Below are positions 7,137-47,721 of a stretch of DNA of 64,000 bases, one piece after another. How positions within the stretch are numbered: the stretch's first letter is position 1; the number at the start of each line of letters is the position of its first letter. Source of the DNA: a virus (taxonomy: Duplodnaviria; Heunggongvirae; Uroviricota; Caudoviricetes). The notes beneath the pieces are model-generated. The model was not told the DNA's origin and did no database searches. It saw only the letters and a program-made list of their open reading frames with translations. Position numbers and translations under genes: made by a program. Where the stretch lies: the IMG/VR virus record IMGVR_UViG_3300032236_001858. The stretch is one strand, 5' to 3'.

Positions 7137-7222
7137 GCTACGGTATGCAAACCGGAATAAGCGACCAGACTTTCAATCTGGACATCGAAAGATGTGTGCG
7201 GGTTCGAGCCCCGTCCGTAGTA
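7137..7222 (+). tRNA. tRNA with TTC anticodon and long variable arm (class II-like body)
   Basis: CCAGA-CT TTC AA-TCTGG; V-arm ACATC-GAAA-GATGT; A73. Confidence 0.75.
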
Positions 7223-7229
7223 CAAATAA

Positions 7230-7313
7230 GGGAGAGCGCCAACGTTGGAGAGTTGGGCTTGTCTGTAAAACAAGTGGCTTACGCCTGAGTGGGTTCGATT
7301 CCCACCTCTCCCA
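7230..7313 (+). tRNA. tRNA-Tyr (GTA)
   Basis: CTTGT-CT GTA AA-ACAAG, long V-arm. Confidence 0.88.
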
Positions 7314-7354
7314 CAAAAAATTAAACAAAAAAAATGAAAAGTTGAAAGTGAAAG

Positions 7355-7537
7355 ATGATAATTATGTTGGTAGTTATCTTTTTATCAAAACCAGTAATGT
7401 CACAGAACATTATTAAATACCAACAAAAAACAAAAATTGATTTGAGATTAAATAAGTCAATTGAAAACCAAAAGGTTCTTTTTAAGAAAACTAAATTAGA
7501 ATCTGATAACTTTGAAATTAAAATTAGTCACGATTAG
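7355..7537 (+). CDS. small hypothetical protein, possible signal peptide
   Basis: 60-aa ORF filling a gap in the tRNA array; hydrophobic N-terminus. Confidence 0.4.
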   Translation: MIIMLVVIFLSKPVMSQNIIKYQQKTKIDLRLNKSIENQKVLFKKTKLESDNFEIKISHD

Positions 7538-7614
7538 CTGATTAATAAAAAGTTTAGAATCAGGTTTACTTTATGTTTAGACATGAAAGAATTTTTTACC
7601 AAAGAGTAAAAAAT

Positions 7615-7687
7615 GATGCTATCGACTAATGGTTTAGGTCGCCATCCTCTCAAGGTGGAAATACGGGTTCGAATCCCGTTAGCATTA
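7615..7687 (+). tRNA. tRNA-Glu (CTC)
   Basis: CCATC-CT CTC AA-GGTGG. Confidence 0.9.
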
Positions 7688-7752
7688 CAAAAAATTAAAC
7701 AAATGTTTGGATATTAAAAAAGTATCCTTATCTTTGTAAAAGAATAAAAAAT

Positions 7753-7824
7753 GGTCCCGTCGTCTAATGGTTAGGACAATGCCCTTTCACGGCATAGATT
7801 TCGGTTCAAATCCGTGCGGGACTA
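7753..7824 (+). tRNA. tRNA-Glu (TTC)
   Basis: ATGCC-CT TTC AC-GGCAT; own TAnnTTTG promoter at 7729. Confidence 0.88.
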
Positions 7825-7913
7825 CAATAAAAACAGATAACTCCGGTATGGTCTCAATCATTACTTAGAACCGGGCTTTGGAAAGTTACAAGTTGAGATT
7901 CTGTTTTTTATAT

Positions 7914-7996
7914 TGGAAGGTGGCCGAGTGGTTAATGGCGCTTGACTGTAAATCAAGTCTCTTGCGAGTACGGGGGTTCGAATCCCTCCCTTCCAA
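7914..7996 (+). tRNA. tRNA-Tyr (GTA)
   Basis: CTTGA-CT GTA AA-TCAAG, long V-arm. Confidence 0.9.
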
Positions 7997-8061
7997 CAAA
8001 AATAAAAAAAATTAAAAGGGAAGACAAAACTTTTTATATATACATTAATATAATTAAAACG

Positions 8062-8142
8062 ATGAAAAATTTAACTAACATATCAACAGCAATCATAGGA
8101 GGCGGCGCGGGAGCGAATGTCACTGGCTGGACTATGTTATAA
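8062..8142 (+). CDS. attenuator leader peptide B (Gly/Ala/Ile): MKNLTNISTAIIGGGAGANVTGWTML
   Basis: ATC ATA GGA GGC GGC GCG GGA GCG run; TCACTGGCTGG (8120-8130) pairs 11 bp with the terminator 5' arm. Confidence 0.87.
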   Translation: MKNLTNISTAIIGGGAGANVTGWTML

Positions 8143-8166
8143 TCTTTCATCAAAAGAATTAAACGT

Positions 8167-8200
8167 AACCCAGTCAGTGAAAATTGACTGGGTTTTTTTA
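8167..8200 (+). terminator. attenuator terminator B
   Basis: AACCCAGTCA-GTGAAAAT-TGACTGGGTT + T tract. Confidence 0.9.
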
Positions 8201-8203
8201 TTT

Positions 8204-8287
8204 CGGCAGGTACCGATGGTGTCTTATACACACTATAACCGTAGCGGGAAGTTGAAAACGTGGGTTCGAATCCCACCCTGCCGACCA
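8204..8287 (+). ncRNA. D-armless tRNA-like RNA, anticodon TAT
   Basis: Acceptor CGGCAGG/CCTGCCG-A-CCA, canonical T arm, GGTGT-CT TAT AC-ACACT, only 7 nt where the D arm should be. Confidence 0.7.
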
Positions 8288-8347
8288 ACTGAGAAAACAG
8301 TAAATCGTGAGCCAACACTAAAACCATCCCACCAGGATGTAAAACTC

Positions 8348-8419
8348 GCGGGTATCGTATAGTGGCTATTACTCCTTCCTTCCAAGTAGGAGACGTCGGT
8401 TCGATTCCGGCTACCCGCT
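8348..8419 (+). tRNA. tRNA-Gly (TCC)
   Basis: CT TCC AA loop, GCGGGTA/TACCCGC, U73. Confidence 0.88.
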
Positions 8420-8427
8420 CAAATTTT

Positions 8428-8502
8428 GGGGTCACATGTACCAAGGCTAGGCGATGATGCTTTGCAAGCATCGTGTGGTGAGTTCGATTCTCACTGGCTC
8501 CA
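8428..8502 (+). tRNA. tRNA-Ala (TGC)
   Basis: GATGC-TT TGC AA-GCATC; G3:U70. Confidence 0.85.
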
Positions 8503-8521
8503 CAAAAAATGAATAGTAAAA

Positions 8522-8689
8522 ATGACTATATTCAAATATTTAGTAGATGGAAAACTTTACTTCTTGTACAATGGAGTAAATGGATATATTGCTATACCAT
8601 TTGAGCATAGTGGAAATACTATATCAAATCCAAATCTTGATGAATTTGTACCAGTGAAAATGGGCAATGGTTCTGATGGATTTGTATAA
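8522..8689 (+). CDS. small hypothetical protein (55 aa)
   Basis: ORF MTIFKYLVDG... fills the gap between tRNAs. Confidence 0.5.
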   Translation: MTIFKYLVDGKLYFLYNGVNGYIAIPFEHSGNTISNPNLDEFVPVKMGNGSDGFV

Positions 8690-8692
8690 AAT

Positions 8693-8767
8693 GCGAAAGT
8701 CGTATAGTGGCTATTATATCAGCTTGCCAAGCTGAGGACGGCAGTTCGATTCTGCTCTTTCGCTCCA
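8693..8767 (+). tRNA. tRNA-Gly (GCC)
   Basis: TCAGC-TT GCC AA-GCTGA, U73, encoded CCA. Confidence 0.9.
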
Positions 8768-8809
8768 ATATGCCGGATGATCCACCGTTGAATCGCGGTG
8801 CCGGCTCCA

Positions 8810-8883
8810 GGGGAATTAGCTCATTTGGCTAGAGCGCTTGTCTGGCAGACAAGAGGTGACGAGTTCAAATCTCGTATTCTCCA
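8810..8883 (+). tRNA. tRNA-Ala (GGC)
   Basis: CTTGT-CT GGC AG-ACAAG; G3:U70. Confidence 0.9.
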
Positions 8884-8890
8884 CTAATAA

Positions 8891-8970
8891 GCGGGTGTCG
8901 TATAGTGGCACGTAGTAGATTATGCCGGTCTTCCAAACCGGAGATGTGAGTTCGATTCTCATCACCCGCT
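8891..8970 (+). tRNA. tRNA-Gly (TCC), enlarged D loop
   Basis: CCGGT-CT TCC AA-ACCGG. Confidence 0.85.
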
Positions 8971-8977
8971 CAAAGAT

Positions 8978-9045
8978 AGTAGTAATGTACGAGTGTTACT
9001 TCGTATTTCCAACGACTAGTTCAGGTTCGAATCCTGGGTTCCGCT
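8978..9045 (+). pseudogene. degenerate tRNA-Gly (TCC)
   Basis: TT TCC AA loop, T arm and 3' GTTCCGCT kept; 5' acceptor strand lost. Confidence 0.5.
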
Positions 9046-9058
9046 CAAATGATAATAT

Positions 9059-9084
9059 GCGGGATTAGTGTAACGGTAGCACAG
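9059..9084 (+). pseudogene. 5' half of a tRNA-Gly
   Basis: GCGGGATTAGTGTAACGGTAGCACAG, then diverges. Confidence 0.5.
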
Positions 9085-9120
9085 TAAAAACACACTCAGC
9101 AAATTTTCTCTATCTTATTA

Positions 9121-9190
9121 GGGCCAGATGCCAACGGCAGGTCAACTCGCTTGCACCGAGATTGTTTGGGTTCGATTCCCACTGTGTCCA
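9121..9190 (+). tRNA. degenerate tRNA-Ala (TGC)
   Basis: CTCG-CT TGC AC-CGAG, G3:U70, bulged acceptor stem. Confidence 0.55.
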
Positions 9191-9346
9191 CTATATTTAT
9201 TTTTCATAGCTACCTAAACTTCAATATATTAATTATATATATACCATTAGATTAGATTAAAGAAAGGTTTTTAGACAGTTTAGTATTTTTAGATTAAAGA
9301 ATGACTTGAAGTTAGACAATTAACTAAAAAATAACTATGCTAAAAA

Positions 9347-12310
9347 ATGAAAAAGATCCTAAAGTTCTTACTAGTGTCATTGACTCTAGTATTTTTTGTG
9401 CCTAAACAAGCACAAGCCTCTCATTGCGCTGGAGCTGAATTATTATTCCAATGGCTTCATGACTCAACTTATCAACTTTATTACAAGTTTTACCGTGATT
9501 GTGCCGGTATTAATGAGCCAACAAATGTTACAGTTTGTTGTAGTAACAATTGTAATTCAACTACAATCAACGTAATTTTAAACAAAGTTACTACACTTAT
9601 TCCTCCTGGTGTAAATAATGGAAATGAAGTTGCTAGAGTTTGTCCTGGTATACATACCACTTGTGGTAATCCAGCCGGAACAACACCTGGCTACAGAGAA
9701 TGGTGGTATGCTAATACTGTAACTCTACCATCAAGATGTAACCACTGGACTTTTTCAGTAAGTCAGTCAGCTAGAAACTCTGGTATTACTAATTTATCTA
9801 ATCCAGGTTCTCAAAATCTTTATACAGAAGCCACACTTGATAATAGAGATGCTCAAGGTGATACCTCACCTTTCTTTTCTGTTAAGCCGGTCCCGTATAT
9901 CTGTGCTAATATACCATACACTTATAACAATGGAGCTTATGACTTAAATAACGACTCTATGGTGTTTAAAATTGTTCAACCAAATGGTGGCTCAGGTTGT
10001 CCTCCAACCACGTCAGCCATTGCTTTTGCTAATACAACACCAAGTTTAAATCTAACTGATAATCCTTTACAAACAAACAATACTTTTTCTATAAATGCTC
10101 AAAATGGATTGATGAGTTTTACTCCAGCTGGAACACAAATTGCAGTTGTAACTATTCAAGTAGATGAATATAGAAATGGTAGAAAAATTGGTTCTGTAAT
10201 GCGTGATATTCAAATTATTGTTTTGTCTTGTAATGTTCAGCAACCAGAAGTAAATATATCTGCTGCTTCTTTAAATAATGCAACTCTTGATAATAATGGA
10301 AACATTACAGCTTGTGCTGGAACACCTTTTAGTTTTTGTTTTGATGCTACAACACCAGATTCAAATGGTATTTTACTCGCATCTGATAACTCAAATATTG
10401 TAATGCCTAATTCAGTAGTATCATATACTAATCAAACTACAGATACGGTTACTGGTTGTTTTTCTTGGTGGCCTTCTGTGTATGATACAGGTTATAAAAT
10501 TTTTACAATAACTATAATGGATTCATCTTGTCGTCCTCCTGGCTTAATGTTTTCACAAACATTTACCTTACCAATTTATGTTTGGCCTGCGACTAATATT
10601 CTAAGTGATACCACAATCTGTAGAGGTGGTGCTGCAAATTTACTTGCTGTTGGTGGTGGAAATTTTATTTGGTCGGTTTTACCAGGAGGTTCTGCTTTAT
10701 CAACTTTAAACTGCACAAACTGCTCAAATCCAGTTGCTACTCCAATAATCACAACTCAGTATGTAGCTACATCTCAAATAACAAATGCTATTTGTAAAAA
10801 TAAAGATACGGTAACAGTAGCGGTTATTCAACCATTTCAGATTATACTACCTGATACAACAACATGTGTTAATAATTCTTTACAATTAAATGCAGTAGTT
10901 AATACAACAAATAATTATACTATATCCTGGACACCAAATACTTATTTAAGTAATGCTGGTATTAATAATCCAATTGTAACACCACCATCTGGTCAATCAT
11001 TGATAACTTACTATGTTAAAGTTTCTTCAATTGGTTCATCAGCTTGTTCAGTTACAGATACATTCAAATTAAAAGTTTTACAAGGATTTACTATCTATAA
11101 TCATGATACAACAATTTGTCTTGGTAAATCAGTAAATATAGCCGGCTCTGGTGATGCTTTATATAATTATACTTGGACACCAACCAGTGGTATAAGTACA
11201 ATACTTACACCATCAATAACACCAAATGTAGTTACAACAACAACGTATATTTTAACAGGTAAATATCCTGGTTGTAAAGATTCTACTAATAAAATTAAAA
11301 TCACAACAGAACCTGTACCAACTGTAGTAGCTGGTGCTGATAGACAAATATGTAGTGGTGATACTATTCATCTTACACCTTTAGTTACTCCAAGTTATCC
11401 ATATGTTTACACTTGGACACCAGGATCTTCATTAGATAATCCAAATTCTGAATTTGCTATCTTTTCAGGATTAATCACAACTCATTTATCACTAACTGTT
11501 AAATCACCAGTTGCTAATTGTTCATCAGCTGATAGTTTAATTATTAATGTAGTTAAACAATCTTTCTTAAAGGTTTCACCACAAGACACTTCAATTTGTC
11601 CATCTGATACAGTTATGATTAAATTAACCACACCTAATGATAAGTTAGTTATTTTTAATTGGAGCCCTCATAATTTTATCAGTGATTATAATTCAGTTAA
11701 TCCTTATTTATACCCACCAACATCAATGGTTTATACTGCTTGGGCTACTGATACAGCTGGTTGTAATGATACTATATCAGCTTATATTGAAATTAGACCA
11801 GGTGCTGTAATTGACATGCCTACATCAATTGGTTTATATCCTGGTGATTCTTATCAAATAACACCTCAAACTAACTGTACTAAATTTATTTGGTTTCCAT
11901 CAAGTGGTTTAAATTATGACTCATTATCAAATCCAACAGTGACCAACTTAGGAGTTAATACTAAGTATATAGTTATTGGTCAAACAGAATGGGGATGTAA
12001 AGTATCTGATTCAATAAATGTAATGGTTATTAATGATTCTTATATTGATATACCTAATGCTTTTTCACCTACAGGTGATCACAATAAAACACTAAAAGTA
12101 ATTCATTTAGGTTCTGCTACTCTTGAATATTTTAGAATATACAATAGATGGGGTAATAAAGTTTTTGAAACAAATGATATTAATGTTGGATGGGATGGTA
12201 CTTATAATGGTCAAGCTCAATCACAAGGTGTTTATGTTTATGAAGTAAAAGCAATAACATATAAAGGTAGGGTCTTTATTAAACAAGGCAATATAACTTT
12301 GATGAAATAA
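9347..12310 (+). CDS. secreted protein with T9SS type-B (gliding-motility-associated) C-terminal domain
   Basis: Signal peptide ..AQA-SHCAGAEL; Ig/PKD-like repeats; IPNAFSP..IYNRWGNKVF..GWDG..GVYVY..GNITL. Confidence 0.88.
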   Translation: MKKILKFLLVSLTLVFFVPKQAQASHCAGAELLFQWLHDSTYQLYYKFYRDCAGINEPTNVTVCCSNNCNSTTINVILNKVTTLIPPGVNNGNEVARVCPGIHTTCGNPAGTTPGYREWWYANTVTLPSRCNHWTFSVSQSARNSGITNLSNPGSQNLYTEATLDNRDAQGDTSPFFSVKPVPYICANIPYTYNNGAYDLNNDSMVFKIVQPNGGSGCPPTTSAIAFANTTPSLNLTDNPLQTNNTFSINAQNGLMSFTPAGTQIAVVTIQVDEYRNGRKIGSVMRDIQIIVLSCNVQQPEVNISAASLNNATLDNNGNITACAGTPFSFCFDATTPDSNGILLASDNSNIVMPNSVVSYTNQTTDTVTGCFSWWPSVYDTGYKIFTITIMDSSCRPPGLMFSQTFTLPIYVWPATNILSDTTICRGGAANLLAVGGGNFIWSVLPGGSALSTLNCTNCSNPVATPIITTQYVATSQITNAICKNKDTVTVAVIQPFQIILPDTTTCVNNSLQLNAVVNTTNNYTISWTPNTYLSNAGINNPIVTPPSGQSLITYYVKVSSIGSSACSVTDTFKLKVLQGFTIYNHDTTICLGKSVNIAGSGDALYNYTWTPTSGISTILTPSITPNVVTTTTYILTGKYPGCKDSTNKIKITTEPVPTVVAGADRQICSGDTIHLTPLVTPSYPYVYTWTPGSSLDNPNSEFAIFSGLITTHLSLTVKSPVANCSSADSLIINVVKQSFLKVSPQDTSICPSDTVMIKLTTPNDKLVIFNWSPHNFISDYNSVNPYLYPPTSMVYTAWATDTAGCNDTISAYIEIRPGAVIDMPTSIGLYPGDSYQITPQTNCTKFIWFPSSGLNYDSLSNPTVTNLGVNTKYIVIGQTEWGCKVSDSINVMVINDSYIDIPNAFSPTGDHNKTLKVIHLGSATLEYFRIYNRWGNKVFETNDINVGWDGTYNGQAQSQGVYVYEVKAITYKGRVFIKQGNITLMK

Positions 12311-12314
12311 AAAT

Positions 12315-12343
12315 AAAACCCATCTTAAAAAGATGGGTTTTTT
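12315..12343. terminator. bidirectional intrinsic terminator
   Basis: AAAACCCATCT-TAAAA-AGATGGGTTTTTT. Confidence 0.85.
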
Positions 12344-12374
12344 ATTTTAAAACTTTTCCAGTAATAATAATTGT

Positions 12375-12578: not shown

Positions 12579-12726
12579 AAGATAGATTTTATTTTATTTA
12601 TATATAAAATTTGTAGAATTAGAATCTTTATCGTATATTTGTAATATAATATCAACTATCATTTTTCTTTGTCAAAAGGTGGTGAAAAAATTTCAAAGAA
12701 ATTTGAATTAAAAAGAAAAATGTAGT

Positions 12727-13545: not shown

Positions 13546-13552
13546 CTGGACT

Positions 13553-31291: not shown

Positions 31292-31376
31292 TGGTAGGTA
31301 CCCGAGCGGTCTTCAGGGACTAGTCTGATATACTAGGTGAGAAATCACGACGTGGGTTCAAATCCCACCCTACCAA
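31292..31376 (+). tRNA. tRNA-Ile (GAT) with long variable arm
   Basis: CTAGT-CT GAT AT-ACTAG; V-arm GTGA-GAAA-TCAC. Confidence 0.8.
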
Positions 31377-31382: not shown

Positions 31383-31454
31383 TCACTGGTAGCTCAGAGG
31401 CAGAGCAACCGCCTGTTAAGCGGTAGGTCGGGATATCGTAATTCACCCAGTGAG
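31383..31454 (+). tRNA. tRNA-Asn (GTT), weak T arm
   Basis: ACCGC-CT GTT AA-GCGGT; T loop ATCGTAA. Confidence 0.75.
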
Positions 31455-31460: not shown

Positions 31461-31539
31461 GCCTCAGTAGCCGAGGTCGCCTTCTAAGCGACTAATCGTA
31501 ACGGAACTGAAAATGTAGGTTCGAATCCTACCTGGGGTA
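31461..31539 (+). ncRNA. D-armless tRNA-like RNA, anticodon TCT
   Basis: GCCTCAG/CTGGGGT-A, GTCGC-CT TCT AA-GCGAC, canonical T arm, 8 nt in place of the D arm. Confidence 0.7.
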
Positions 31540-32521: not shown

Positions 32522-32607
32522 TGATAGGTTGCCGTAGTGGCCGAACGGTCCGGACTGTTAATCCGGTGACGAATAGTCCATCGTGGGTTCGAATCCCACC
32601 CTGTCAG
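32522..32607 (+). tRNA. tRNA-Asn (GTT) with long variable arm
   Basis: CCGGA-CT GTT AA-TCCGG; V-arm GAC-GAATA-GTC; U1:A72, G73. Confidence 0.82.
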
Positions 32608-32614: not shown

Positions 32615-32686
32615 AGTCCTGTAGCTTAATGGGAAAGCGCTTGCCTTACATGCAAGAGAGAGTCGGATCGTTACCGACCAGGACTA
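32615..32686 (+). tRNA. tRNA-Val (TAC)
   Basis: CTTGC-CT TAC AT-GCAAG; T loop ATCGTTA. Confidence 0.88.
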
Positions 32687-32692
32687 CAAAAT

Positions 32693-32766
32693 TGGACTGT
32701 AGCTCATTTGGTTAGAGCGCCACGCTGATACCGTGGAGGTGGTCGGATCGTAACCGACCAGTCCAA
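32693..32766 (+). tRNA. tRNA-Ile (GAT)
   Basis: CCACG-CT GAT AC-CGTGG; T loop ATCGTAA. Confidence 0.88.
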
Positions 32767-32772
32767 CAACAA

Positions 32773-32856
32773 GGTACTATGGCCGAGTGGAGTCTTTAAG
32801 ACGGGAGGCAGTGGTCTGCAAAACTTCTCACACTGGTTCGAATCCAGTTAGTACCT
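32773..32856 (+). tRNA. tRNA-Cys (GCA) with hairpin inserted in the D loop
   Basis: CT GCA AA loop, U73, D-loop insert GTCT-TTA-AGAC. Confidence 0.8.
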
Positions 32857-32861
32857 CAAAC

Positions 32862-32933
32862 GCTTCTTAAGCATTAATGGTGATGCACTAGTCTTGTAAA
32901 CTAGAGAAATCGGATCGTTACCGGTAAGAAGCT
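32862..32933 (+). tRNA. tRNA-Thr (TGT)
   Basis: CTAGT-CT TGT AA-ACTAG; T loop ATCGTTA. Confidence 0.88.
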
Positions 32934-32939
32934 CTAAAT

Positions 32940-33011
32940 TGTTCTGTAGCTCAATGGTAGAGCGCTTCTGTGACATGGAAGAGGTAGTCGGATCGTTACC
33001 GACCAGGACAA
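32940..33011 (+). tRNA. tRNA-Val (GAC)
   Basis: CTTCT-GT GAC AT-GGAAG; T loop ATCGTTA. Confidence 0.85.
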
Positions 33012-33025
33012 CAAAATAATGGATG

Positions 33026-33111
33026 GTGATTAAGAGTGTTACTTCGTGAAATGGTATACACATTTGTCTTAAAAACAAACTTTTGAGGGTTCAAGTCCCT
33101 CAGTAAAATCA
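33026..33111 (+). pseudogene. degenerate tRNA-Leu (TAA)-like element
   Basis: Leu-type D arm, TTTGT-CT TAA AA-ACAAA and T arm, but no V-arm and an interrupted acceptor stem. Confidence 0.5.
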
Positions 33112-33136: not shown

Positions 33137-33220
33137 GCCGATGTGGCTCAGTGGCGACAGCACTGGTTTTGTAAACCAGAGACGAATAGTCCAACGGGGG
33201 TTCGAGTCCCTCCATCGGCT
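33137..33220 (+). tRNA. tRNA-Thr (TGT) with long variable arm
   Basis: CTGGT-TT TGT AA-ACCAG; V-arm GAC-GAATA-GTC. Confidence 0.82.
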
Positions 33221-33427: not shown

Positions 33428-33499
33428 TTCGATATGGCCTATTGGTAGGGTGCAGGGGGACATGTTCCTGAGGACTTGGTTCGATTCCAGGTATCGATA
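33428..33499 (+). pseudogene. tRNA with aberrant 8-nt anticodon loop (Val GAC- or Met-derived)
   Basis: Intact acceptor and T arms; CAGGG-GGACATGT-TCCTG. Confidence 0.5.
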
Positions 33500-33506
33500 C
33501 AAACAT

Positions 33507-33593
33507 CGCGGGGTAGAGTAGAGGTCAAACTCACTGGGCTCATAACCCAGGGTTGCGCAAGTGACACGTCAGGTTCGAATCCTGCCCCCGCTA
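33507..33593 (+). tRNA. initiator-type tRNA-Met (CAT) with long variable arm
   Basis: C1:U72 mismatch, CTGGG-CT CAT AA-CCCAG with three G:C pairs, extended V region. Confidence 0.8.
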
Positions 33594-33766: not shown

Positions 33767-33851
33767 GCCGGTGTGATCCGATGTGGTAATGGAGTTCGGC
33801 TCATATCCGAATTGGTTTATCCTATTGCTGGTTCGACTCCAGCCACCGGTA
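33767..33851 (+). tRNA. tRNA-Met or Ile2 (CAT) with extended variable region
   Basis: TTCGG-CT CAT AT-CCGAA; identity not resolvable by eye. Confidence 0.72.
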
Positions 33852-33959: not shown

Positions 33960-34241
33960 ATGGAAAAGATTATCGACATCGTTAGAGATAACGTTGCAAG
34001 ATTCGACTGGGCTTCTGAAGGAGTCCTCTACTACAAAGTAGAAACTGAAAAATATATCTATCACTTCCCAGTAGATATGAATAACAAAGAAGATGTGGGA
34101 ACAGCTAATTTTGAATCAGAACATAAGGCTATAAATCTTATGAGATATTTAAGAAAAGCATCAGAAAACTTAGAAAAAATTAAAAACGATTCAGGTACGC
34201 CTGATTGGAAAAAGACATTAAGAGTTACACAAAAAGTATGA
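33960..34241 (+). CDS. hypothetical protein
   Basis: 93-aa ORF coupled (ATGA) to LeuRS. Confidence 0.7.
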   Translation: MEKIIDIVRDNVARFDWASEGVLYYKVETEKYIYHFPVDMNNKEDVGTANFESEHKAINLMRYLRKASENLEKIKNDSGTPDWKKTLRVTQKV

Positions 34242-35503
34242 AAGATGAAAAGTATATATGCGTTATGTTTCCTTACCCAAGTGGTTCGGGATTGCATGTA
34301 GGTCACTTTTATAATTATGCTATAATTGATTCTTATTGTAGATACTTTAAATACAAAGGTCAACAAGTTTTTCAACCTTTTGGTTATGATGCCTTTGGTT
34401 TGCCGGCTGAAAACTATGCTAGAAAAGTAGGTCGTGATGCTAAAGATGTTACCTATGAAAACATCAGTCAATTTAGAAAACAGATGGAAAAGATGGATAC
34501 CAACTATCAAGAAATGTTGGTAACATCTGATCCTTCTTATCAAAAATGGACACAATGGTTGTTTTTGAAATTGAAAGAACATGGCTTGGCTTATAAAAAA
34601 GATGGTGAAGTAAATTGGTGTCCTTCTTGTGAAACCGTATTGGCTCGTGAACAAGTTAAATCTGATTGTTGTGAAAGATGTTCAACTAAGGTAGAAATGA
34701 AAACAATGAATCAGTGGTACTTTAAGATTACTGATTATAAAGAACGTTTGATTAAAAACTTGGATTGGATAGATTATCCAAAATCAACTATTAACGCGCA
34801 AAGAATGTGGTTGGAAAACTTGCACGATTGGTGTGTTTCTCGTCAAAGAAAATGGGGCTGTCCAATTCCAATAGAAGGTGAAACCGATACAATGGATACA
34901 TTTGTAGATTCTTCATTTTACTATGTTAGATATTGTGATGCTACTAATGATAATGAATTGTGTGCTAAAGATAAATATAAACAAGTAGATGTTTATGTTG
35001 GTGGTAATGAACACGCTTGTATGCACTTGATTTATGCTCGTTTTATTAATATGTTTTTGTATGATATTGGTGTTGTTTCAGAGGAAGAACCATTTAAGAA
35101 AGTTATACATCAAGGTATAATTTTGAACGAAGGTGAAAAAATGTCTAAAACAAAAGGTAATGTTATTAATCCAGATGATTATGACTCTGATGAATTGAGA
35201 TTTTATATGATGTTTATTGGTCATTATTTTGATGGTGGTTCTTGGTCTGACCAAAATATAGCTGGTATTAAAAGATTTATTAGTCGTTTTAAGGAGTGGA
35301 TGTCAAGAGAAGGTTCTGATACTTTTGATATTGAATCATTTAAGAAAAAAATATTTAACTACACTGAGAGTTTTAAGTTTAATAAAGTTGTTAGTGAGTT
35401 TATGACAATAGTTAATCAAAATAGAACTAAAAACATAACACCTGAGATAAAAAAAGAATTGATTGAATTGATTAAGGTGTATATGCCTGGAATTAAAATT
35501 TAA
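34238..35503 (+). CDS. leuS: minimal leucyl-tRNA synthetase (421 aa)
   Basis: MFPYPSG..LHVGH, GYDAFGLPAEN, Zn knuckle CPSC/CERC, DWCVSRQRKWG, MDTFVDSSFY, GGNEHA, KMSKT. Confidence 0.9.
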   Translation: MKDEKYICVMFPYPSGSGLHVGHFYNYAIIDSYCRYFKYKGQQVFQPFGYDAFGLPAENYARKVGRDAKDVTYENISQFRKQMEKMDTNYQEMLVTSDPSYQKWTQWLFLKLKEHGLAYKKDGEVNWCPSCETVLAREQVKSDCCERCSTKVEMKTMNQWYFKITDYKERLIKNLDWIDYPKSTINAQRMWLENLHDWCVSRQRKWGCPIPIEGETDTMDTFVDSSFYYVRYCDATNDNELCAKDKYKQVDVYVGGNEHACMHLIYARFINMFLYDIGVVSEEEPFKKVIHQGIILNEGEKMSKTKGNVINPDDYDSDELRFYMMFIGHYFDGGSWSDQNIAGIKRFISRFKEWMSREGSDTFDIESFKKKIFNYTESFKFNKVVSEFMTIVNQNRTKNITPEIKKELIELIKVYMPGIKI

Positions 35504-38345: not shown

Positions 38346-38377
38346 TAAATTTATATTAAAAAATAATATATATGGAC

Positions 38378-39997
38378 ATGAAATACATTAAAACTAGAAA
38401 TAGATTTCTTGCTGAATCAAAAGGTGAAATGAGCGACAACGCTCTTCATACACTTGCGACTCATGATGATGGACAATCTCCTGATGTTCAAAAAAGTTTG
38501 GATGCACTTGACGAGGTTTCTCCTAAAGGTAAAGTGGTAACTCGTTTTGCTCCTTCACCAACAGGATTTTTACATATCGGAGGTGTTCGTACAGCTCTTT
38601 ACAACTACTTGTTTGCTAAAAAACACGGTGGTATCTTTTATGTTCGTATTGAAGATACTGACCAAAAACGTTTTGTAGGCGATGCTGAAAAATATATTCA
38701 AGACGCTTTAGAATGGTGTGGTATTGACCCAGATTATGCACCTTGGAAAGGTGGTCCTAATGGACCTTACCGCCAATCGGAAAGAGATTATTCTGGTCAT
38801 ATTCAAACTCTTTTAGATAAGGGTATGGCTTACTATGCTTTTGATACAGAAGATGATATGGTTAAAGTAAGAGCTGAAAATGCTCACTTTGCTTACGATA
38901 CTAAAACTCGTATGTCAATGAAGAACTCACTCTCTTTATCTAAAGAAGAAGTTGATGCACTTCTTGCTGCTAATACTCCATTTGTAATTCGCTTCAAAAC
39001 ACCAGAAAATAGAACTATCACCGTTAATGATGTAATTCGTGGTGAAGTTAGTTTGAATACAAATCAAACTGATGATAAAGTTTTGGTTAAATCAAATGGT
39101 ATTCCTACATATCATATGGCTAACGTATGTGACGACCACGATATGGGAACTACTCACGTTATTCGTGGTGAAGAATGGTTGCCTTCAACTCCACTTCACT
39201 TAATGTTATATGAAGCATTTGGTTGGGAAGCTCCTACATTTGCTCACCTACCTCTAATTTTGAATCCTGATGGTAAAGGTAAGTTGTCTAAACGTAAAGC
39301 TTTAGCTTTAGGTATTCCAGCTTTCCCAATGGGTGGTGAAGGTGAAGATGATAAAGGTCAAAAAGTAAAGTATCTTGGTTTCAAAGATGAAGGTTTTGAA
39401 CCACAAGCTATGTTGAATTTCTTGGTGCTTTTAGGTTGGTCCCCAACAGATACTCAAGAACTTATGACTATGGCTGACATGATTTCTAAATTTGACTTAG
39501 CTCATGTTCATAAGGCTGGTGCTCGTTTTGATGTTGAAAAAGCTAAACACTTTAATGCTCAACACTTGAACACTTATAGAAGTGATGAAGAAATTCTTTC
39601 ACATATTGATATGGGTGATACCTATCATTACTCACCAGAAAATCTTTCTAAGATTGTGGATATCTGTAAAAAGAGAGCAGTCTTTACTAAAGATTTACAA
39701 GCTGTTGCTGATATCTTCTTTAAGCCAATTGTGATTAAAGAAACAGATGTTAAGTTATTAACTGATGATTACAAAAAAGTATTCTCAGTTTTTGTAACTA
39801 AGTCAATTGATTGGACGGCTGAAACTATTAAACAAACAATTCACGACATTTGTCAAGAAATAGGTGTTAAAATGGGTAAGATAATGCCTGCTTTAAGATT
39901 GGCTATTGCTGGTGGATTACCAGGTCCAGATTTGGCAACAACAATGGAAATAATTGGTAGGGATGAAACCTTAATAAGAATTAAAAACACTTTATAA
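38378..39997 (+). CDS. gltX: glutamyl-tRNA synthetase with N-terminal tag extension
   Basis: TRFAPSPTGFLHIGG, RIEDTD, PTYH, HVIRGEEW, KLSKR; start at MKYIKT is 5 nt after a TAATATATA box. Confidence 0.93.
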   Translation: MKYIKTRNRFLAESKGEMSDNALHTLATHDDGQSPDVQKSLDALDEVSPKGKVVTRFAPSPTGFLHIGGVRTALYNYLFAKKHGGIFYVRIEDTDQKRFVGDAEKYIQDALEWCGIDPDYAPWKGGPNGPYRQSERDYSGHIQTLLDKGMAYYAFDTEDDMVKVRAENAHFAYDTKTRMSMKNSLSLSKEEVDALLAANTPFVIRFKTPENRTITVNDVIRGEVSLNTNQTDDKVLVKSNGIPTYHMANVCDDHDMGTTHVIRGEEWLPSTPLHLMLYEAFGWEAPTFAHLPLILNPDGKGKLSKRKALALGIPAFPMGGEGEDDKGQKVKYLGFKDEGFEPQAMLNFLVLLGWSPTDTQELMTMADMISKFDLAHVHKAGARFDVEKAKHFNAQHLNTYRSDEEILSHIDMGDTYHYSPENLSKIVDICKKRAVFTKDLQAVADIFFKPIVIKETDVKLLTDDYKKVFSVFVTKSIDWTAETIKQTIHDICQEIGVKMGKIMPALRLAIAGGLPGPDLATTMEIIGRDETLIRIKNTL

Positions 39998-42309: not shown

Positions 42310-42421
42310 GACTTATATATTAAAAAAGCAATTCCGGATATTAATTAAAATAATTCTATATAAATTTGGATATTGTGGATAAGTAATGTATATTTGTATT
42401 TAGAAAAATCATAACCCTAAA

Positions 42422-43657: not shown

Positions 43658-43658
43658 T

Positions 43659-43684
43659 AAAGAGCCAGAAAACTGGCTCTTTTT
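43659..43684 (+). terminator. intrinsic terminator
   Basis: AAAGAGCCAG-AAAA-CTGGCTCTTTTT. Confidence 0.8.
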
Positions 43685-43696
43685 AAATATTATATT

Positions 43697-44146
43697 ATGA
43701 AAACAATAGCAATCTACGCTGGAAGTTTTAACCCATTTCACATCGGACATCTTAATATAGTTGAGAAAGCCGAAAAAATATTTGGTAGTGGTAATGTTGT
43801 TATCGCTATAGGAGTTAACCCAGAAAAGCCAAAATCTGATATTGAAATCAGATGTCAAGAAATCAGTAAAAAGATTAATCGTCAAGTTATTTACTATACT
43901 AAATTTCTTCATGAACTAATTGAAGATTATGAAAAATCTGGTTATAGTGTTGTACTTATAAGAGGTTTAAGAAATGGTGACGACTTAGCTTATGAAGATA
44001 ACCAACTTAAATTTATCAATGATTTCAAAAAAGATATCAATGTTGTTTTCTTTCGCTGTGATGAAGAATTTAAACACATTAGTTCTTCTGCTATTAGAAA
44101 TCTACAATCTTTCCGACCAGGTTCCGGTGATAAATATTTAGTATAA
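43697..44146 (+). CDS. coaD: phosphopantetheine adenylyltransferase-like nucleotidyltransferase
   Basis: AIYAGSFNPFHIGH, IRGLRN..D..YE, ISSSAIR. Confidence 0.8.
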   Translation: MKTIAIYAGSFNPFHIGHLNIVEKAEKIFGSGNVVIAIGVNPEKPKSDIEIRCQEISKKINRQVIYYTKFLHELIEDYEKSGYSVVLIRGLRNGDDLAYEDNQLKFINDFKKDINVVFFRCDEEFKHISSSAIRNLQSFRPGSGDKYLV

Positions 44147-44394
44147 TGAGGGATATTGAGGGTAGATATTTATCTGATAATGAAATTGAAGCAATTAATT
44201 CTTATTTATTACAAAATGGTTGCTCAACTATTAATGGCACACCAAATATAACAAATATACACTTTACTAATGGTTTTTATAAAACCGAATTTTCAGAGGC
44301 TAACAAAGCAACATTAAGTTACCTTGAAGTACCTGAAAACTGGGTTAAGTCATTTATAAGAGATAAGAAAATAAATAAAATAATAAATGGATAA
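44146..44394 (+). CDS. hypothetical protein with C-terminal RDxKI motif
   Basis: Ends IRDKKINKIING. Confidence 0.65.
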   Translation: MRDIEGRYLSDNEIEAINSYLLQNGCSTINGTPNITNIHFTNGFYKTEFSEANKATLSYLEVPENWVKSFIRDKKINKIING

Positions 44395-44797
44395 GCAAAG
44401 ATACTTCAATGTAATAAAAAACTATAAGAAAATGTGTTCAAACCTTATAGCAAGTATTTCATCATATAATTGGTCTGACGAATTTTGTAGAAAAGAAGTT
44501 AAAGAACTTTATGCAAAACTAATTAAAGAATTTGAAAATGTTGACTTCACTCAATTCACACTTGAAGAACTAAAGCAACTTGATTTTAATATGTTGGATG
44601 ATGATACAATCTTAATGCCAGTTTGGGCAATTGATTGTTTACCAGATGGTGCTATTGTAATGAGTATTAATGGTGATGAAATCACTTTTGATAAATCTAA
44701 AGGTTTAGATAAAGATGTAAGATTTGGATGTACCGCCTATGGATTTTCTAAATCTCAATTAAGAGATTCTGCTATTGAGCAAGTTTTAGGTAAGTAG
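44387..44797 (+). CDS. hypothetical protein with C-terminal RD motif
   Basis: Ends LRDSAIEQVLGK. Confidence 0.7.
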   Translation: MDKQRYFNVIKNYKKMCSNLIASISSYNWSDEFCRKEVKELYAKLIKEFENVDFTQFTLEELKQLDFNMLDDDTILMPVWAIDCLPDGAIVMSINGDEITFDKSKGLDKDVRFGCTAYGFSKSQLRDSAIEQVLGK

Positions 44798-44798
44798 T

Positions 44799-45203
44799 AT
44801 GAAAGAAGTAGAATTGCTAAAATTAGGGTACATAGTACATGCCGTTAGACAAGATAAAAAAAATCTTATAATGGTTGCTTTCAATGGTGGTCCATTATTT
44901 GACTATTATATTTCAATTTTAACTAGTCAATGTGATGATTACGAATATCTAAAAACTGATAAGTCTATTATTGGTGGTATAAATTTAAACTTGATGAATC
45001 GAAAAGATTTAGAAACATTCAAGTGTGTACCAGATGATAATCCAATTGTAGGTAAAAACTTTACAGTAAATAATCATTATTGGAGTACATCAGAAGTTAA
45101 AAAGATAATAAATAATAATATTATAATAACTAAAAACTCAGTCTATGCCATTCATGATATTTCTGAGTTAAGAGATAAAAAAATAAATGATTTAGGTATA
45201 TGA
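44799..45203 (+). CDS. hypothetical protein with C-terminal RDxKI motif
   Basis: Ends LRDKKINDLGI. Confidence 0.7.
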   Translation: MKEVELLKLGYIVHAVRQDKKNLIMVAFNGGPLFDYYISILTSQCDDYEYLKTDKSIIGGINLNLMNRKDLETFKCVPDDNPIVGKNFTVNNHYWSTSEVKKIINNNIIITKNSVYAIHDISELRDKKINDLGI

Positions 45204-45754
45204 TTAATTATATTCCAACAAATAGAAACAATCCAAGATTAGCAAATGTAGGTAGTGCTTGGGGTAATATTCCTACAATAATAAAAGACATAATTGATAG
45301 GTTTAATTTAAAACAAGATTTAGCTCTTGAATTTGGCGTTGAGTATGGTTATTCAACTTCAGCGTTAGCTAACTATTTTAATAATGTAATTGGTGTTGAT
45401 ACTTTTGAAGGAGATCCACACTCTGGATTTAAAATAAATCATCTTGAAACAACTACTGAAAATCTTAAAGATTTTAGTAATATTCAATTAGTTAAATCAG
45501 ATTACAGAGATTATATTAAAGATAATAATAATATGTATGATATGATTCATATTGATATTATACACACTTACAATGAAACATTTGAATGCGGTGAGTGGGC
45601 AATAAATCACTCAAAGTGTGTTGTTTTTCATGATACACTTTCATTTTATGAAATAATGAGAGTTTGTGAAGATCTATCAGCAAAACACAACCTTGATTTT
45701 TACAATTATGAGGAATCTTATGGTTTAGGTATTTTAATTAATAATAATCTATAA
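45200..45754 (+). CDS. class I SAM-dependent methyltransferase
   Basis: ALEFGVEYGYST, GVDTF, YDMIHID, VVFHD. Confidence 0.82.
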   Translation: MINYIPTNRNNPRLANVGSAWGNIPTIIKDIIDRFNLKQDLALEFGVEYGYSTSALANYFNNVIGVDTFEGDPHSGFKINHLETTTENLKDFSNIQLVKSDYRDYIKDNNNMYDMIHIDIIHTYNETFECGEWAINHSKCVVFHDTLSFYEIMRVCEDLSAKHNLDFYNYEESYGLGILINNNL

Positions 45755-45821
45755 ACTAAATAAAGAATAAAAGTATAACAAATGGCAATAATGCCATAAT
45801 TAAAAATAAACAAGAATAAAA

Positions 45822-46013
45822 ATGAAAACAGGAACAGTAAAGTTCTACAATGAGGCTAAAGGATTTGGTTTCATCACAGACGAAAACGGAACTGACGTGT
45901 TTGTACACGCTACAGGACTAAAAGATGAAATCAGAGAAAATGATTCAGTTAGCTTTGAAGTAACAGAAGGTAAAAAAGGATTAAATGCAATTAATGTAAC
46001 AGTTAATGCTTAA
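45822..46013 (+). CDS. cold-shock domain protein
   Basis: GTVKFYNEAKGFGFI (RNP1), VFVH (RNP2). Confidence 0.95.
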   Translation: MKTGTVKFYNEAKGFGFITDENGTDVFVHATGLKDEIRENDSVSFEVTEGKKGLNAINVTVNA

Positions 46014-46032
46014 TATATTTTTAGTACTAATT

Positions 46033-46062
46033 AAAACCCTTAGATTTATCTGAGGGTTTTTT
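46033..46062 (+). terminator. intrinsic terminator
   Basis: AAAACCCTTAGA-TTTA-TCTGAGGGTTTTTT. Confidence 0.85.
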
Positions 46063-46087
46063 GTTTATAAAAATTAATATATAATGT

Positions 46088-46462
46088 ATGAAATATTTAC
46101 AAACAATAAACGAATATCAAAGAACTGTAGGTTTTAGATATTCTGAACCAAAAGAAAAATATAAAGTATCTTTATTATGTAAAGGTCAAGATATCAATGA
46201 AGATAAGATAAATGAAGGTTTATCAAAAGTTAGTGAATTGACTTATGACTCAAAGTCTATTGAAGTAAATTTACTTGATGAAGGTATGATTGCTGAACTA
46301 CCAGAAATTGGATCTGTAGAGATTAGCGCAATTGTTAGTTTTAATGTAACTCTTTACAATGAGAAAGAAGTAAATGGTGTTGTTAGTGAATTAGGTCAAA
46401 AGTTATCAAAATTTGATATTGAAATATTAGATTTTAAATCAAAAGAAAATTTGGAAGATTAA
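46088..46462 (+). CDS. tagged hypothetical protein
   Basis: MKYLQTINEY; TAATATATA at 46075. Confidence 0.72.
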   Translation: MKYLQTINEYQRTVGFRYSEPKEKYKVSLLCKGQDINEDKINEGLSKVSELTYDSKSIEVNLLDEGMIAELPEIGSVEISAIVSFNVTLYNEKEVNGVVSELGQKLSKFDIEILDFKSKENLED

Positions 46463-46547
46463 AATATTATTTCTATCTTTGTATTCACAAAACAAAAAAG
46501 AATTAAAAAAAAATTAAAAAAATATTTGACAAATTAAAACTTTGTTG

Positions 46548-46598
46548 TATATTTGTATAAAATAAGAACAAAAGGAACAAAAACTTTTTAATATATAC
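46548..46598 (+). promoter_or_regulatory. tandem promoter block upstream of leader D
   Basis: TTTG(46525)..TATATTTG...AAAAGGAACAAAAACTTTTTAATATATAC. Confidence 0.72.
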
Positions 46599-46602
46599 AG
46601 AA

Positions 46603-46701
46603 ATGAAAAACTTAAACTTAAATATCGTTAACCCTCAACCGCAAGTTGTAATCGATCAGGATCCTGGTTCGAAAGGGGCTAACTATGTGGTTTTAAGTTA
46701 A
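46603..46701 (+). CDS. attenuator leader peptide D (Pro/Gln/Asp): MKNLNLNIVNPQPQVVIDQDPGSKGANYVVLS
   Basis: CCT CAA CCG CAA .. GAT CAG GAT CCT; GGCTAACT (46677-46684) pairs with AGTTAGTC of the terminator. Confidence 0.83.
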   Translation: MKNLNLNIVNPQPQVVIDQDPGSKGANYVVLS

Positions 46702-46724
46702 AGATATTATAACTATGAAACATT

Positions 46725-46757
46725 ACCCAGTTAGTCGAAAGATTAACTGGGTTTTTT
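46725..46757 (+). terminator. attenuator terminator D
   Basis: ACCCAGTTAGTC-GAAA-GATTAACTGGGT + T tract. Confidence 0.9.
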
Positions 46758-46768
46758 GTTTTAGATAC

Positions 46769-46840
46769 AGTCCGTGGGTATGTTGGTATGAATAACCTCC
46801 TGTCACGGGGAAGAAGCCGGTTCGATTCCGGTACGGACTG
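46769..46840 (+). tRNA. tRNA-Asp (GTC)
   Basis: CT GTC AC loop, G73. Confidence 0.85.
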
Positions 46841-46845
46841 CAAAA

Positions 46846-46919
46846 CGAGAAGTGACTAAGGTTTTAAGCACGCGCCGTCTGGAGCGGTGAGTTAGCAGGT
46901 TCGATTCCTGTCTTCTCGA
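46846..46919 (+). tRNA. tRNA-Pro (TGG) with C33
   Basis: CGCCG-TC TGG AG-CGGTG; C1:G72, A73. Confidence 0.72.
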
Positions 46920-46982
46920 CAACAAGTAGCTTTTGAGGCGAAAAATACTCTTTAGAGAATAGAGTAAAACAATTCTCAAAAT

Positions 46983-47055
46983 GGTCTCGTGGTTGAATGG
47001 TTACAATACCACCCTGTCACGGTGCGAGATGCCGGTTCGATTCCGGTCGAGACCG
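46983..47055 (+). tRNA. tRNA-Asp (GTC)
   Basis: CACC-CT GTC AC-GGTG, G73. Confidence 0.88.
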
Positions 47056-47060
47056 CAAAA

Positions 47061-47131
47061 GGACATATAGCTTAAAAGGAAAGAGTACCTCCAGTGGGAG
47101 GGGAGTCTTGGTTCAAGTCCAGGTATGTCCG
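47061..47131 (+). ncRNA. tRNA body with non-canonical anticodon arm
   Basis: GGACATA/TATGTCC-G and normal T arm; arm CCTCC-AGTG-GGAGG (4-nt loop) or AG TGG GA in a weaker register. Confidence 0.55.
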
Positions 47132-47137
47132 CAAAAA

Positions 47138-47209
47138 GGTCTATTAGGGTAGTGGTTATCCTTCCCGACTGTCTATCGGGAGACACCGGTTCGAATCCGG
47201 TATAGACCG
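47138..47209 (+). tRNA. tRNA-Asp (GTC)
   Basis: CCCGA-CT GTC TA-TCGGG. Confidence 0.9.
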
Positions 47210-47256
47210 CAAATGGGCTTTTCAAGACAAAAAGTTTGTAGATTACTTAATGAAAC

Positions 47257-47331
47257 GGTCTAGTGGTGAAGTGGCTATCATATCTGCCTGTCACGCAGAA
47301 GTAGAGGGATCGAAACCCTTCTAGACCGCCA
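47257..47331 (+). tRNA. tRNA-Asp (GTC)
   Basis: TCTGC-CT GTC AC-GCAGA; T loop ATCGAAA; encoded CCA. Confidence 0.88.
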
Positions 47332-47337
47332 AAAATT

Positions 47338-47412
47338 CGGGGTGTAGCGTAGTCCGGTTATCGCGCATGCTTTGGGAGCATGAAATCGTAGGTTCGAATC
47401 CTGCCACCCCGA
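47338..47412 (+). tRNA. tRNA-Pro (TGG)
   Basis: CATGC-TT TGG GA-GCATG; C1:G72. Confidence 0.92.
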
Positions 47413-47443
47413 CAAAGAAACAAAATATTAATAAATAGAAATT

Positions 47444-47497
47444 ATGAGAACAACAACACAATACCAGCAACAACAACAAATTAATCCAACGGATTGA
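47444..47497 (+). CDS. attenuator leader peptide E (Gln): MRTTTQYQQQQQINPTD
   Basis: CAA TAC CAG CAA CAA CAA CAA; GGATTGA over the stop codon pairs with TCAATCT of the terminator. Confidence 0.88.
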   Translation: MRTTTQYQQQQQINPTD

Positions 47498-47525
47498 TAA
47501 CGGTATCGTATTGTCTAAACTTTAC

Positions 47526-47559
47526 AAACCCTATTCAATCTGATTGAGTAGGGTTTTTT
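47526..47559 (+). terminator. attenuator terminator E
   Basis: AAACCCTATTCAAT-CTG-ATTGAGTAGGGTTT + T tract. Confidence 0.9.
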
Positions 47560-47561
47560 AT

Positions 47562-47632
47562 TGTCTGATGGTGTAGTGGTAGCACAAGGGTCTTTGATCC
47601 CCTTAGTTCAGGTCCGATTCCTGATCAGACAA
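47562..47632 (+). tRNA. tRNA-Gln (TTG)
   Basis: CT TTG AT loop, U1:A72. Confidence 0.85.
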
Positions 47633-47639
47633 CAAATAT

Positions 47640-47721
47640 TGAGGAATAGAATAATGGCAGTTCACCCGCCTTTGAAGCGGAGAGAGAAATCTCAGTGTAG
47701 GTTCGAGTCCTACTTCCTCAA
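47640..47721 (+). tRNA. tRNA-Gln (TTG) with long variable arm
   Basis: CCGC-CT TTG AA-GCGG; V-arm GAGA-GAAA-TCTC. Confidence 0.82.

Follow-up and report, generated by a model that had tools for sequence, protein, structure and literature searches.

In bacteria, long variable arms are confined to the transfer RNAs (tRNAs) for Leu, Ser, Tyr and selenocysteine (Sec). Here we describe tRNA genes that combine such an arm with other anticodons, found in a stretch of 64,000 nucleotides (hereafter the window) from a Caudoviricetes virus, IMG/VR record IMGVR_UViG_3300032236_001858. Seven genes in the window, with the anticodons TTC, GAT, GTT, TGT, CAT (twice) and TTG, have a long variable region, and the long-arm design is conserved, covarying and widespread in phages.

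Seven tRNA genes with long variable regions

The virus record, a single one of 476,236 bp, has a G+C content of 29.9%, and the window covers its bases 224490-288489. ARAGORN predicts 53 tRNA genes in this genome, of which 37 lie within the window in three arrays, and the Rfam covariance model RF00005 (gathering score 29), used alongside it for tRNA calling, adds a few aberrant genes to this set. Almost all tRNA genes of the window lack an encoded CCA, the discriminator being followed by CAAA or CTAA. The nearest GenBank relatives are the uncultured 635-642-kb phages LR756502 and LR745206; the phage glutaminyl-tRNA synthetase (GlnRS) is closest to Bacteroidota enzymes (52-58% identity), and two proteins carry a CHU_C type IX secretion domain. 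The relatives compared below are these two phages and loci around phage GlnRS genes, some of which are referred to by L numbers.

An earlier, sequence-only reading had marked seven genes as bearing long arms, and ARAGORN and Rfam return the same coordinates for all seven:

7137..7222, + strand, tRNA-Glu(TTC) with long arm; variable region 7182-7197: A, stem CATC, loop GAAA, stem GATG, tail TGT
31292..31376, + strand, tRNA-Ile(GAT) with long arm; variable region 31337-31351: G, stem TGA, loop GAAA, stem TCA, tail CGAC
32522..32607, + strand, tRNA-Asn(GTT) with long arm; variable region 32567-32582: T, stem GAC, loop GAATA, stem GTC, tail CATC; G73
33137..33220, + strand, tRNA-Thr(TGT) with long arm; variable region 33180-33195: A, stem GAC, loop GAATA, stem GTC, tail CAAC
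33507..33593, + strand, initiator-type tRNA-Met(CAT) with long arm; variable region 33551-33568: G, stem GTTGC, loop GCAA, stem GTGAC, tail ACG
33767..33851, + strand, tRNA(CAT), elongator Met or lysidine-type Ile2; 15-nucleotide variable region 33812-33826, no convincing stem
47640..47721, + strand, tRNA-Gln(TTG) with long arm; variable region 47682-47696: stem GAGA, loop GAAA, stem TCTC, tail AGT

All seven match RF00005 over its full length (41.6-60.5 bits, model positions 1-71 matched). They are 82-87 nucleotides long, with variable regions of 15-18 nucleotides against 3-5 in the short paralogs, and each has a 7-bp acceptor stem, a 5-bp T stem and a standard 7-nucleotide anticodon loop. 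Acceptor pairing in the long-arm cloverleaves is 7/7, and the anticodon loops are conserved. A variable region of at least 10 nucleotides, the length expected of class II architecture, is present in all seven genes, and in six it can form a stem-loop of 3-5 bp. This extra hairpin lies within the minimum-free-energy fold of the Glu, Ile, Thr, initiator Met and Gln genes; for Asn, RNAalifold places it in the consensus of nine homologues, with double compensatory changes at 19 of 24 pairs and covariation in all arms. In gene 33767 the variable region is long but forms no clear hairpin, although its homologues in L015 and L037 have one. As had also been proposed, ordinary versions accompany the long ones: for every long gene the window holds one or more short-arm genes of identical anticodon. 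Three further long-arm genes, all Lys (TTT, TTT, CTT), are found by ARAGORN 4.4-4.6 kb upstream of the window and bring the number in the genome to ten. A loop-to-T-arm pattern recovered the Glu and Gln genes in the window and had no match in 100 shuffles of it, so chance is not an issue.

The bodies of these genes differ. A type-II D arm (3-bp stem, enlarged loop) is found in the long Glu, Ile, Asn and Thr genes and is absent from the long Gln gene, which has a 4-bp, type-I D stem. Gene 33507 bears the full bacterial initiator signature, namely a C1 x U72 mismatch, A11:U24, and G29-G31:C39-C41 closing the anticodon stem.

Conservation and spread in phages

Among the relatives, a long form is present in five for Gln (L005, L009, L012, L013 and L015), three for Asn, three for Thr, two for Met and one for Glu, and long Asp, Pro, Val, Cys and Arg genes also occur. 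The initiator-type gene has an identical copy in L003, and the long Glu gene has a homologue in L008 as well as an 86% identical copy in LR756502. Stems are compensated between the window and its relatives: CATC/GATG vs TTTC/GAAA (L008) for Glu, GAC/GTC vs GAATT/AATTC for Asn, and GAGA/TCTC vs GCC/GGC (L005, L009) for Gln. No long forms were found in the fetched regions of phages whose GlnRS is at most 54% identical.

The design reaches well beyond these relatives. A loop-to-T-arm pattern for UUN anticodons matched at least 118 stretches of IMG/VR, and about 40 of the matches listed are ARAGORN tRNA-Lys, -Glu or -Gln genes of 82-92 nucleotides in tRNA-rich loci, where long Met, Trp, Cys, Val, Asn, Phe, Asp, Pro, Gly, Thr and His genes are found as well. 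A pattern for the Asn form matched at least 118 loci; among the matches listed, to which the following Asn counts also refer, 116 of 118 are tRNA-Asn(GTT) of 84-93 nucleotides, G73 being present in 98 of the 116. A crude hairpin count over all long forms (86% vs 65% in shuffles) was too weak to be informative, and we used a fixed-register test on Asn instead: a stem of at least 3 bp forms in one fixed register in 82% of 74 distinct Asn variable regions, compared with 14% after shuffling. The arms have 34 different stems, with a GAAA, GCAA or GTAA loop in 27 of 61. There was no short Asn gene nearby in 81 of 113 loci with a long one.

Long forms are present in cultured phages too. The tRNA-Asn of phiKZ (Pseudomonas) is long and annotated at 89 nucleotides, both Lys genes of phiCbK (Caulobacter) are long, and so is tRNA-Lys(CTT) of XacN1 (Xanthomonas); phiKZ Asn and phiCbK Lys are the sole copies of their anticodons in the fetched loci. 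Cellulophaga phage phi4:1 has a long Asn gene, labelled "tRNA-Pseudo" in GenBank, with a body near-identical to the window Asn and a compensated GAGA/TCTC stem. The scaffold, phage-specific as far as sampled, consists of a 7/5 acceptor-T body, 1-2 unpaired nucleotides, a 3-5 bp hairpin, usually with a GNRA loop, and a spacer of 3-4 nucleotides that is often CAYC.

A second type of long variable region also recurs, an unpaired A/C-rich 12-mer of the type WAYAYAAACAYC (L001:6537, L006:1409). It is seen in Lys genes of L030, L082, L102, L122 and L138 as well, hence in Thr and Lys tRNAs of different phages, and it ends in CAYC, as the hairpin type does.

Amino acid identity

We assembled a survey set of 589 distinct phage tRNAs, retrieved by patterns, of which 94 are long with an identity other than Leu, Ser or Tyr. 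The D arm of these 94 best matches type II in 31 and type I in 61. Most of them (76/94) carry the majority discriminator of the short tRNAs of the same anticodon class: G in Asn (7/7), Trp (4/4) and Asp (2/2), U in Cys (4/4) and Thr (4/4), and also C in His and U in Gly. The first base pair behaves similarly, with U1:A72 in 8 of 9 long Gln forms, G1:U72 in 9 of 15 long Glu forms, as in short Glu, and G1:C72 in all four long Thr forms; all aligned long Thr copies have C2:G71. In the window, long Glu has G1:U72 and A73, the same as its short copies, long Ile has a 3-bp D stem, U1:A72 and A73, long Thr has G1:C72, C2:G71 and U73, and long Gln has U1:A72 and G2:C71.

By contrast with what a Leu, Ser or Tyr identity would demand, the anticodons are TTC, GAT, GTT, TGT, CAT and TTG and the discriminators agree with those of the cognate short tRNAs. 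None of the long-arm genes has the Leu-type D arm that is invariant in this phage. The geometry of the arm (3-4 bp stem, 3-4 nucleotide 3' spacer) differs from that of Ser (5-7 bp, 0-2 nucleotides) and Leu (1-2 nucleotide spacer) and is closest to that of Tyr (3-4 bp stem, 3 nucleotide spacer). Nor is there an 8/4 or 9/3 acceptor/T branch as in allo-tRNAs, the acceptor stem being 7 bp and the T stem 5 bp. Because discriminators and 1:72 pairs follow the anticodon, identity rules (PMC9976931) suggest that the long-arm tRNAs most likely insert the cognate amino acid, and that mischarging with Leu, Ser or Tyr is far less probable. Mischarging with Leu through A73 and A15:U48 was considered and dropped, as the long Glu gene has both features but so does the short Glu gene at 7058, which makes them a trait of the Glu family.

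Turnover, exchange and origin of the arm

The arm is gained, lost and swapped between syntenic tRNA genes. The sequence-only reading had taken a shared Asn/Thr arm as a sign of module exchange, and the comparison with relatives bears this out: leaving aside the first base, the two arms in the window agree at 14 of 15 positions, and the window Thr arm is an exact match to the Asn arm of L006. In the Thr(TGT) gene that follows Val(GAC) in synteny, the variable region has 4 nucleotides in L002, 12 unpaired nucleotides in L001 and L006, and a 16-nucleotide hairpin in the window and L003; Thr of L002 and L006 have identical acceptor and T arms and differ in the D arm and anticodon stem. Likewise, Gln has a variable region of 5 nucleotides in L006 vs a 13-nucleotide hairpin in L009. 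Together, the synteny of Thr and Gln and the identity of the arms indicate that either the arm alone or the whole core of D arm, anticodon arm and variable region was exchanged between tRNA genes.

Origins appear to differ between genes. The body of the long initiator is nearest to that of the short initiator-type gene at 6585, which points to insertion of an arm. The bodies of the long Ile and Asn genes are, within the genome, nearest to each other and to Tyr 7914, and the acceptor and D arm of long Ile resemble those of phiKZ tRNA-Asn; the mutual proximity and the likeness to phiKZ Asn hint at an anticodon shift inside the long-arm family. We make no claim for a Tyr origin by anticodon shift, since in 114 long Asn tRNAs the mean identity of the D region to Tyr, Ser, Leu and short Asn is indistinguishable (0.52-0.55).

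Synthetases of the phage

The coordinates of three of the four synthetase genes of the genome are:

34205..35503, + strand, LeuRS-like class I synthetase, 432 amino acids; leuS_bact 399 bits, below the 548-bit cut-off, about half of the 843-position model
38372..39997, + strand, GluRS; TIGR00464, 436 bits
47761..49422, + strand, GlnRS; TIGR00440, 668 bits, directly downstream of three Gln tRNA genes

The LeuRS-like gene (mini-LeuRS) lies downstream of the Ile/Asn/Val/Thr/Leu/Met tRNA array; its matches to the leuS model fall in four separate stretches, and in the genome search this region appears as two overlapping frames. Only LeuRS-like, GluRS, GlnRS and mini-HisRS enzymes are present in the genome. 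A search for class I and class II synthetase families found no LysRS, AsnRS, ThrRS, IleRS or MetRS, so most long-arm tRNAs must be charged by host enzymes. Relatives that keep a phage GlnRS are often without a long-arm Gln gene in the fetched region. The suggestion of the sequence-only reading that the long forms are reserved for phage synthetases fails, and pairing with phage enzymes is ruled out as a general explanation.

Host-type bacteria and the literature

The sequence-only reading held that it would be refuted if long-arm copies were common in host genomes; in the sampled Bacteroidota (251-401 genomes, searched by patterns), which were reached through the GlnRS loci, they were not found. 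The UUN pattern had 61 matches in 401 Bacteroidota genomes vs 24 for a reversed control, and none of the 31 matches fetched was a tRNA; the Asn-form pattern had no match in 251 Bacteroidota genomes. In the openly available full-text literature searched, phage tRNAs that combine a long arm with an identity other than Leu, Ser or Tyr are not described, and a 2023 review of tRNA identity, as searched, mentions no phage exception to the long-arm rule.

Other unusual tRNA genes in the arrays

A mirror case is tRNA-Leu(TAA) at 33037-33110, which has a Leu-type D arm, a variable region of 5 nucleotides, one acceptor mismatch and U73. There are further short-arm Leu genes in L001, L002, L015 and phi4:1, and the survey set holds 16 short-arm vs 45 long-arm Leu genes. 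A third body type (32615-33012, 31383-31454 and 47257-47331) has the T loop ATCGTTA, ATCGTAA or ATCGAAA vs TTCGAAT, resembling a swap of T54:A58 to A54:T58; there are Val, Ile, Thr, Asn and Asp copies, and Phe and His copies upstream of the window.

More aberrant are two tRNA-like sequences at 8204-8287 and 31461-31539, with the anticodons TAT (Ile, AUA) and TCT (Arg, AGA), which have about 7-8 nucleotides at the position of the D arm and a variable region of 22-25 nucleotides with a D-loop-like CGTA(A/G)CGG; long-range pairing may give them a D stem. Neither is called by ARAGORN; 31461-31539 scores 36.6 bits in Rfam, and a similar Arg(TCT) gene is found at L002:5664. Also missed by ARAGORN is a tRNA-Gly(TCC)-like sequence of 80 nucleotides at 8891-8970 (Rfam, 54 bits) with about 9 extra D-loop nucleotides. 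At 33428-33500 ARAGORN calls a four-base anticodon, ACAT, in an 8-nucleotide loop, and the syntenic L002 gene (7037) is an ordinary tRNA-Ile(TAT). The ATA codon is frequent in the phage (26.7 per 1000).

Discussion

In our judgement the chances are about even that the long-arm genes encode functional phage tRNAs that serve normal codons and amino acids on a phage-specific five-arm scaffold, and that their body types have been diversified against factors recognising host-type bodies. That the long forms are working decoders is very likely, because the long form is often the sole phage copy in the fetched loci; the codons that they would read (AAA, AAT, GAA, ATT, CAA and ACA) are among the commonest of the phage, and for the phiKZ tRNAs taken together both expression and sedimentation with ribosomal fractions are known (PMC8545117). 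The arm would be tolerated by host synthetases whose recognition depends chiefly on anticodon and discriminator, and also by EF-Tu and the ribosome, which deal with class II tRNAs in any case. The window has two or three body types for each anticodon, and if short, long-arm and swapped T-loop types are kept side by side, no single factor that recognises a host-type body would remove the supply for the commonest codons. A candidate for such a factor is a defence nuclease that cuts near the junction of anticodon stem and variable loop; other candidates are toxins that modify tRNA and shut-off enzymes, whether from the phage itself or from a rival.

Evasion of tRNA-targeting defences by the arm is plausible and fits what is known of phage biology as well as the rapid turnover of the arm. 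The tRNA-Lys of T5 resists PARIS through changes in its body (PMC11464382), T5 tRNA-Tyr, with its distinctive variable loop, is described as resisting Retron-Eco7 (PMC13096335, citing PMC11555353), and phage tRNAs with changes in the anticodon loop act as counter-defence (PMC10264068). A bolder version, which we consider possible but rather doubtful, is that the swappable arm could be a general counter-defence module in a phage class of five-arm tRNAs for a dozen or more amino acids, sterically blocking nucleases or toxins that dock on the face formed by anticodon stem and variable loop, and moved by gene conversion within the arrays. We also considered the arm as a decoy anticodon and rejected this, as its loops are 4-5 nucleotides, of GNRA type, and hold no copy of an anticodon.

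Several points weigh against functional, diversified tRNAs. The survey sets were retrieved by patterns, so that frequencies are biased and truncated. For many known anticodon nucleases the anticodon stem-loop suffices, and an extra arm is no obvious shield. Class II synthetases, such as those for Lys, Asn and Thr, approach from the side of the variable loop, which makes tolerance of the arm an assumption. Finally, conservation of the stem could reflect a mere need to keep a long insert folded. This last point leads to the main rival, that the arm is a tolerated passenger, an insert at the one permissive site of the tRNA that spreads by gene conversion in redundant arrays, brings no benefit and is selected only for folding. 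We hold this to be possible, if on the improbable side. It would account for the gain and loss of the arm among close relatives in syntenic Thr and Gln genes, for the unpaired 12-nucleotide form and for the heterogeneous origins (about two thirds of D arms type-I-like, one third type-II-like), and engineered variable-arm hairpins are compatible with translation (PMC7590224). However, the long form is often the sole copy of its anticodon in the fetched loci, and from such genes an insert of no use ought to disappear; the design, with its fixed register, CAYC spacer and GNRA loops, is kept across phages of Pseudomonas, Caulobacter, Xanthomonas and Cellulophaga as well as uncultured huge phages.

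Alternatively, the arm may be a handle by which a phage-encoded partner, be it a synthetase, a modification or repair enzyme or an RNA-binding protein, marks phage tRNAs. The phage does encode GluRS and GlnRS, the latter directly after the Gln tRNAs, and GNRA loops and the conserved CAYC spacer could serve as recognition elements; yet stem sequences vary freely, the genome is without phage LysRS, AsnRS, ThrRS, IleRS and MetRS, relatives with a phage GlnRS are often without long Gln, and we know of no partner common to the unrelated phiKZ, phiCbK and the phage studied here, all of which makes this explanation unlikely. Decay of duplicated genes, or a role of tRNA-like RNAs outside translation, is less probable still: a homologue in phi4:1 is labelled a pseudo-tRNA, gene 33767 has no clean arm and truly aberrant tRNA-like genes lie in the same arrays, but the cloverleaves are intact (7/7 acceptor pairs), anticodon loops are conserved, covariation runs through all arms and the long form is often the only copy found. 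We give least credence, and very little of it, to the idea that these are Leu-, Ser- or Tyr-type tRNAs with switched anticodons that miscode in the manner of nev- or allo-tRNAs, perhaps charged by the mini-LeuRS. Their class II shape, the A73 of the Glu, Ile, Lys and Gln forms, the proximity of long Ile and Asn to a Tyr gene within the genome and a LeuRS-like gene of about half the length of the leuS model would suit it. Against it, discriminators follow the anticodon and not one class II identity, none has the Leu-type D arm, the arm geometry is unlike that of Ser and Leu, the acceptor/T branch is 7/5 and not 8/4 or 9/3, the anticodon is conserved within each family across phages, and miscoding at the commonest codons of the phage would be harmful.

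Whatever the role of the arm, a large and conserved phage family breaks the textbook rule on long arms, and annotation pipelines mislabel real genes, as with the "tRNA-Pseudo" of phi4:1. The extra arm would have to be tolerated by host LysRS, AsnRS and other synthetases, a point of consequence for tRNA identity and for the engineering of orthogonal tRNAs. With respect to the question of why phages carry tRNAs, the arm offers a structural handle that is testable in phiKZ/Pseudomonas, phiCbK/Caulobacter and phi4:1/Cellulophaga.

Compared with known systems, the long forms share with canonical class II tRNAs (Leu, Ser, Tyr, Sec) the five-arm cloverleaf with a variable-arm hairpin, frequent GNRA loops and, in some cases, a 3-bp D stem with a GAGYGG-type D loop, the geometry being closest to tRNA-Tyr; they depart from them in their class I anticodons and discriminators, in the 3-4 nucleotide spacer that is often CAYC, and in the type-I-like D arm of about two thirds. 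The nematode nev-tRNAs (PMC3333845, PMC4300185) similarly put anticodons other than Leu or Ser (Gly, Ile) on class II bodies, but they are eukaryotic and charged with Leu in vitro, whereas in the phage forms identity elements follow the anticodon and many amino acids are involved; discriminator and D arm of the long forms are not Leu-like, which speaks indirectly against charging with Leu in the manner of nev-tRNAs. Allo-tRNAs (Mukai et al., PMC5389517) are likewise non-canonical, with long variable arms and unexpected anticodons, and come from metagenomes and some phages, yet they have an 8/4 or 9/3 branch and Ser-type identity, in contrast to the 7/5 body and cognate discriminators described here. 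Phage tRNAs that resist defence are comparable in being isoacceptors that supplement or replace those of the host and depart from them in details of the body close to the anticodon stem or variable loop; in them base substitutions with shown resistance are concerned, while here it is a whole extra arm with putative resistance. Finally, the type I tRNA-Leu of Streptomyces coelicolor (PMC6614811) crosses the class I/II boundary within one amino-acid family, with a synthetase that accepts both forms; there the arm was lost, the opposite direction to that of the long forms, and it is the short-arm Leu genes of these phages that this case mirrors.

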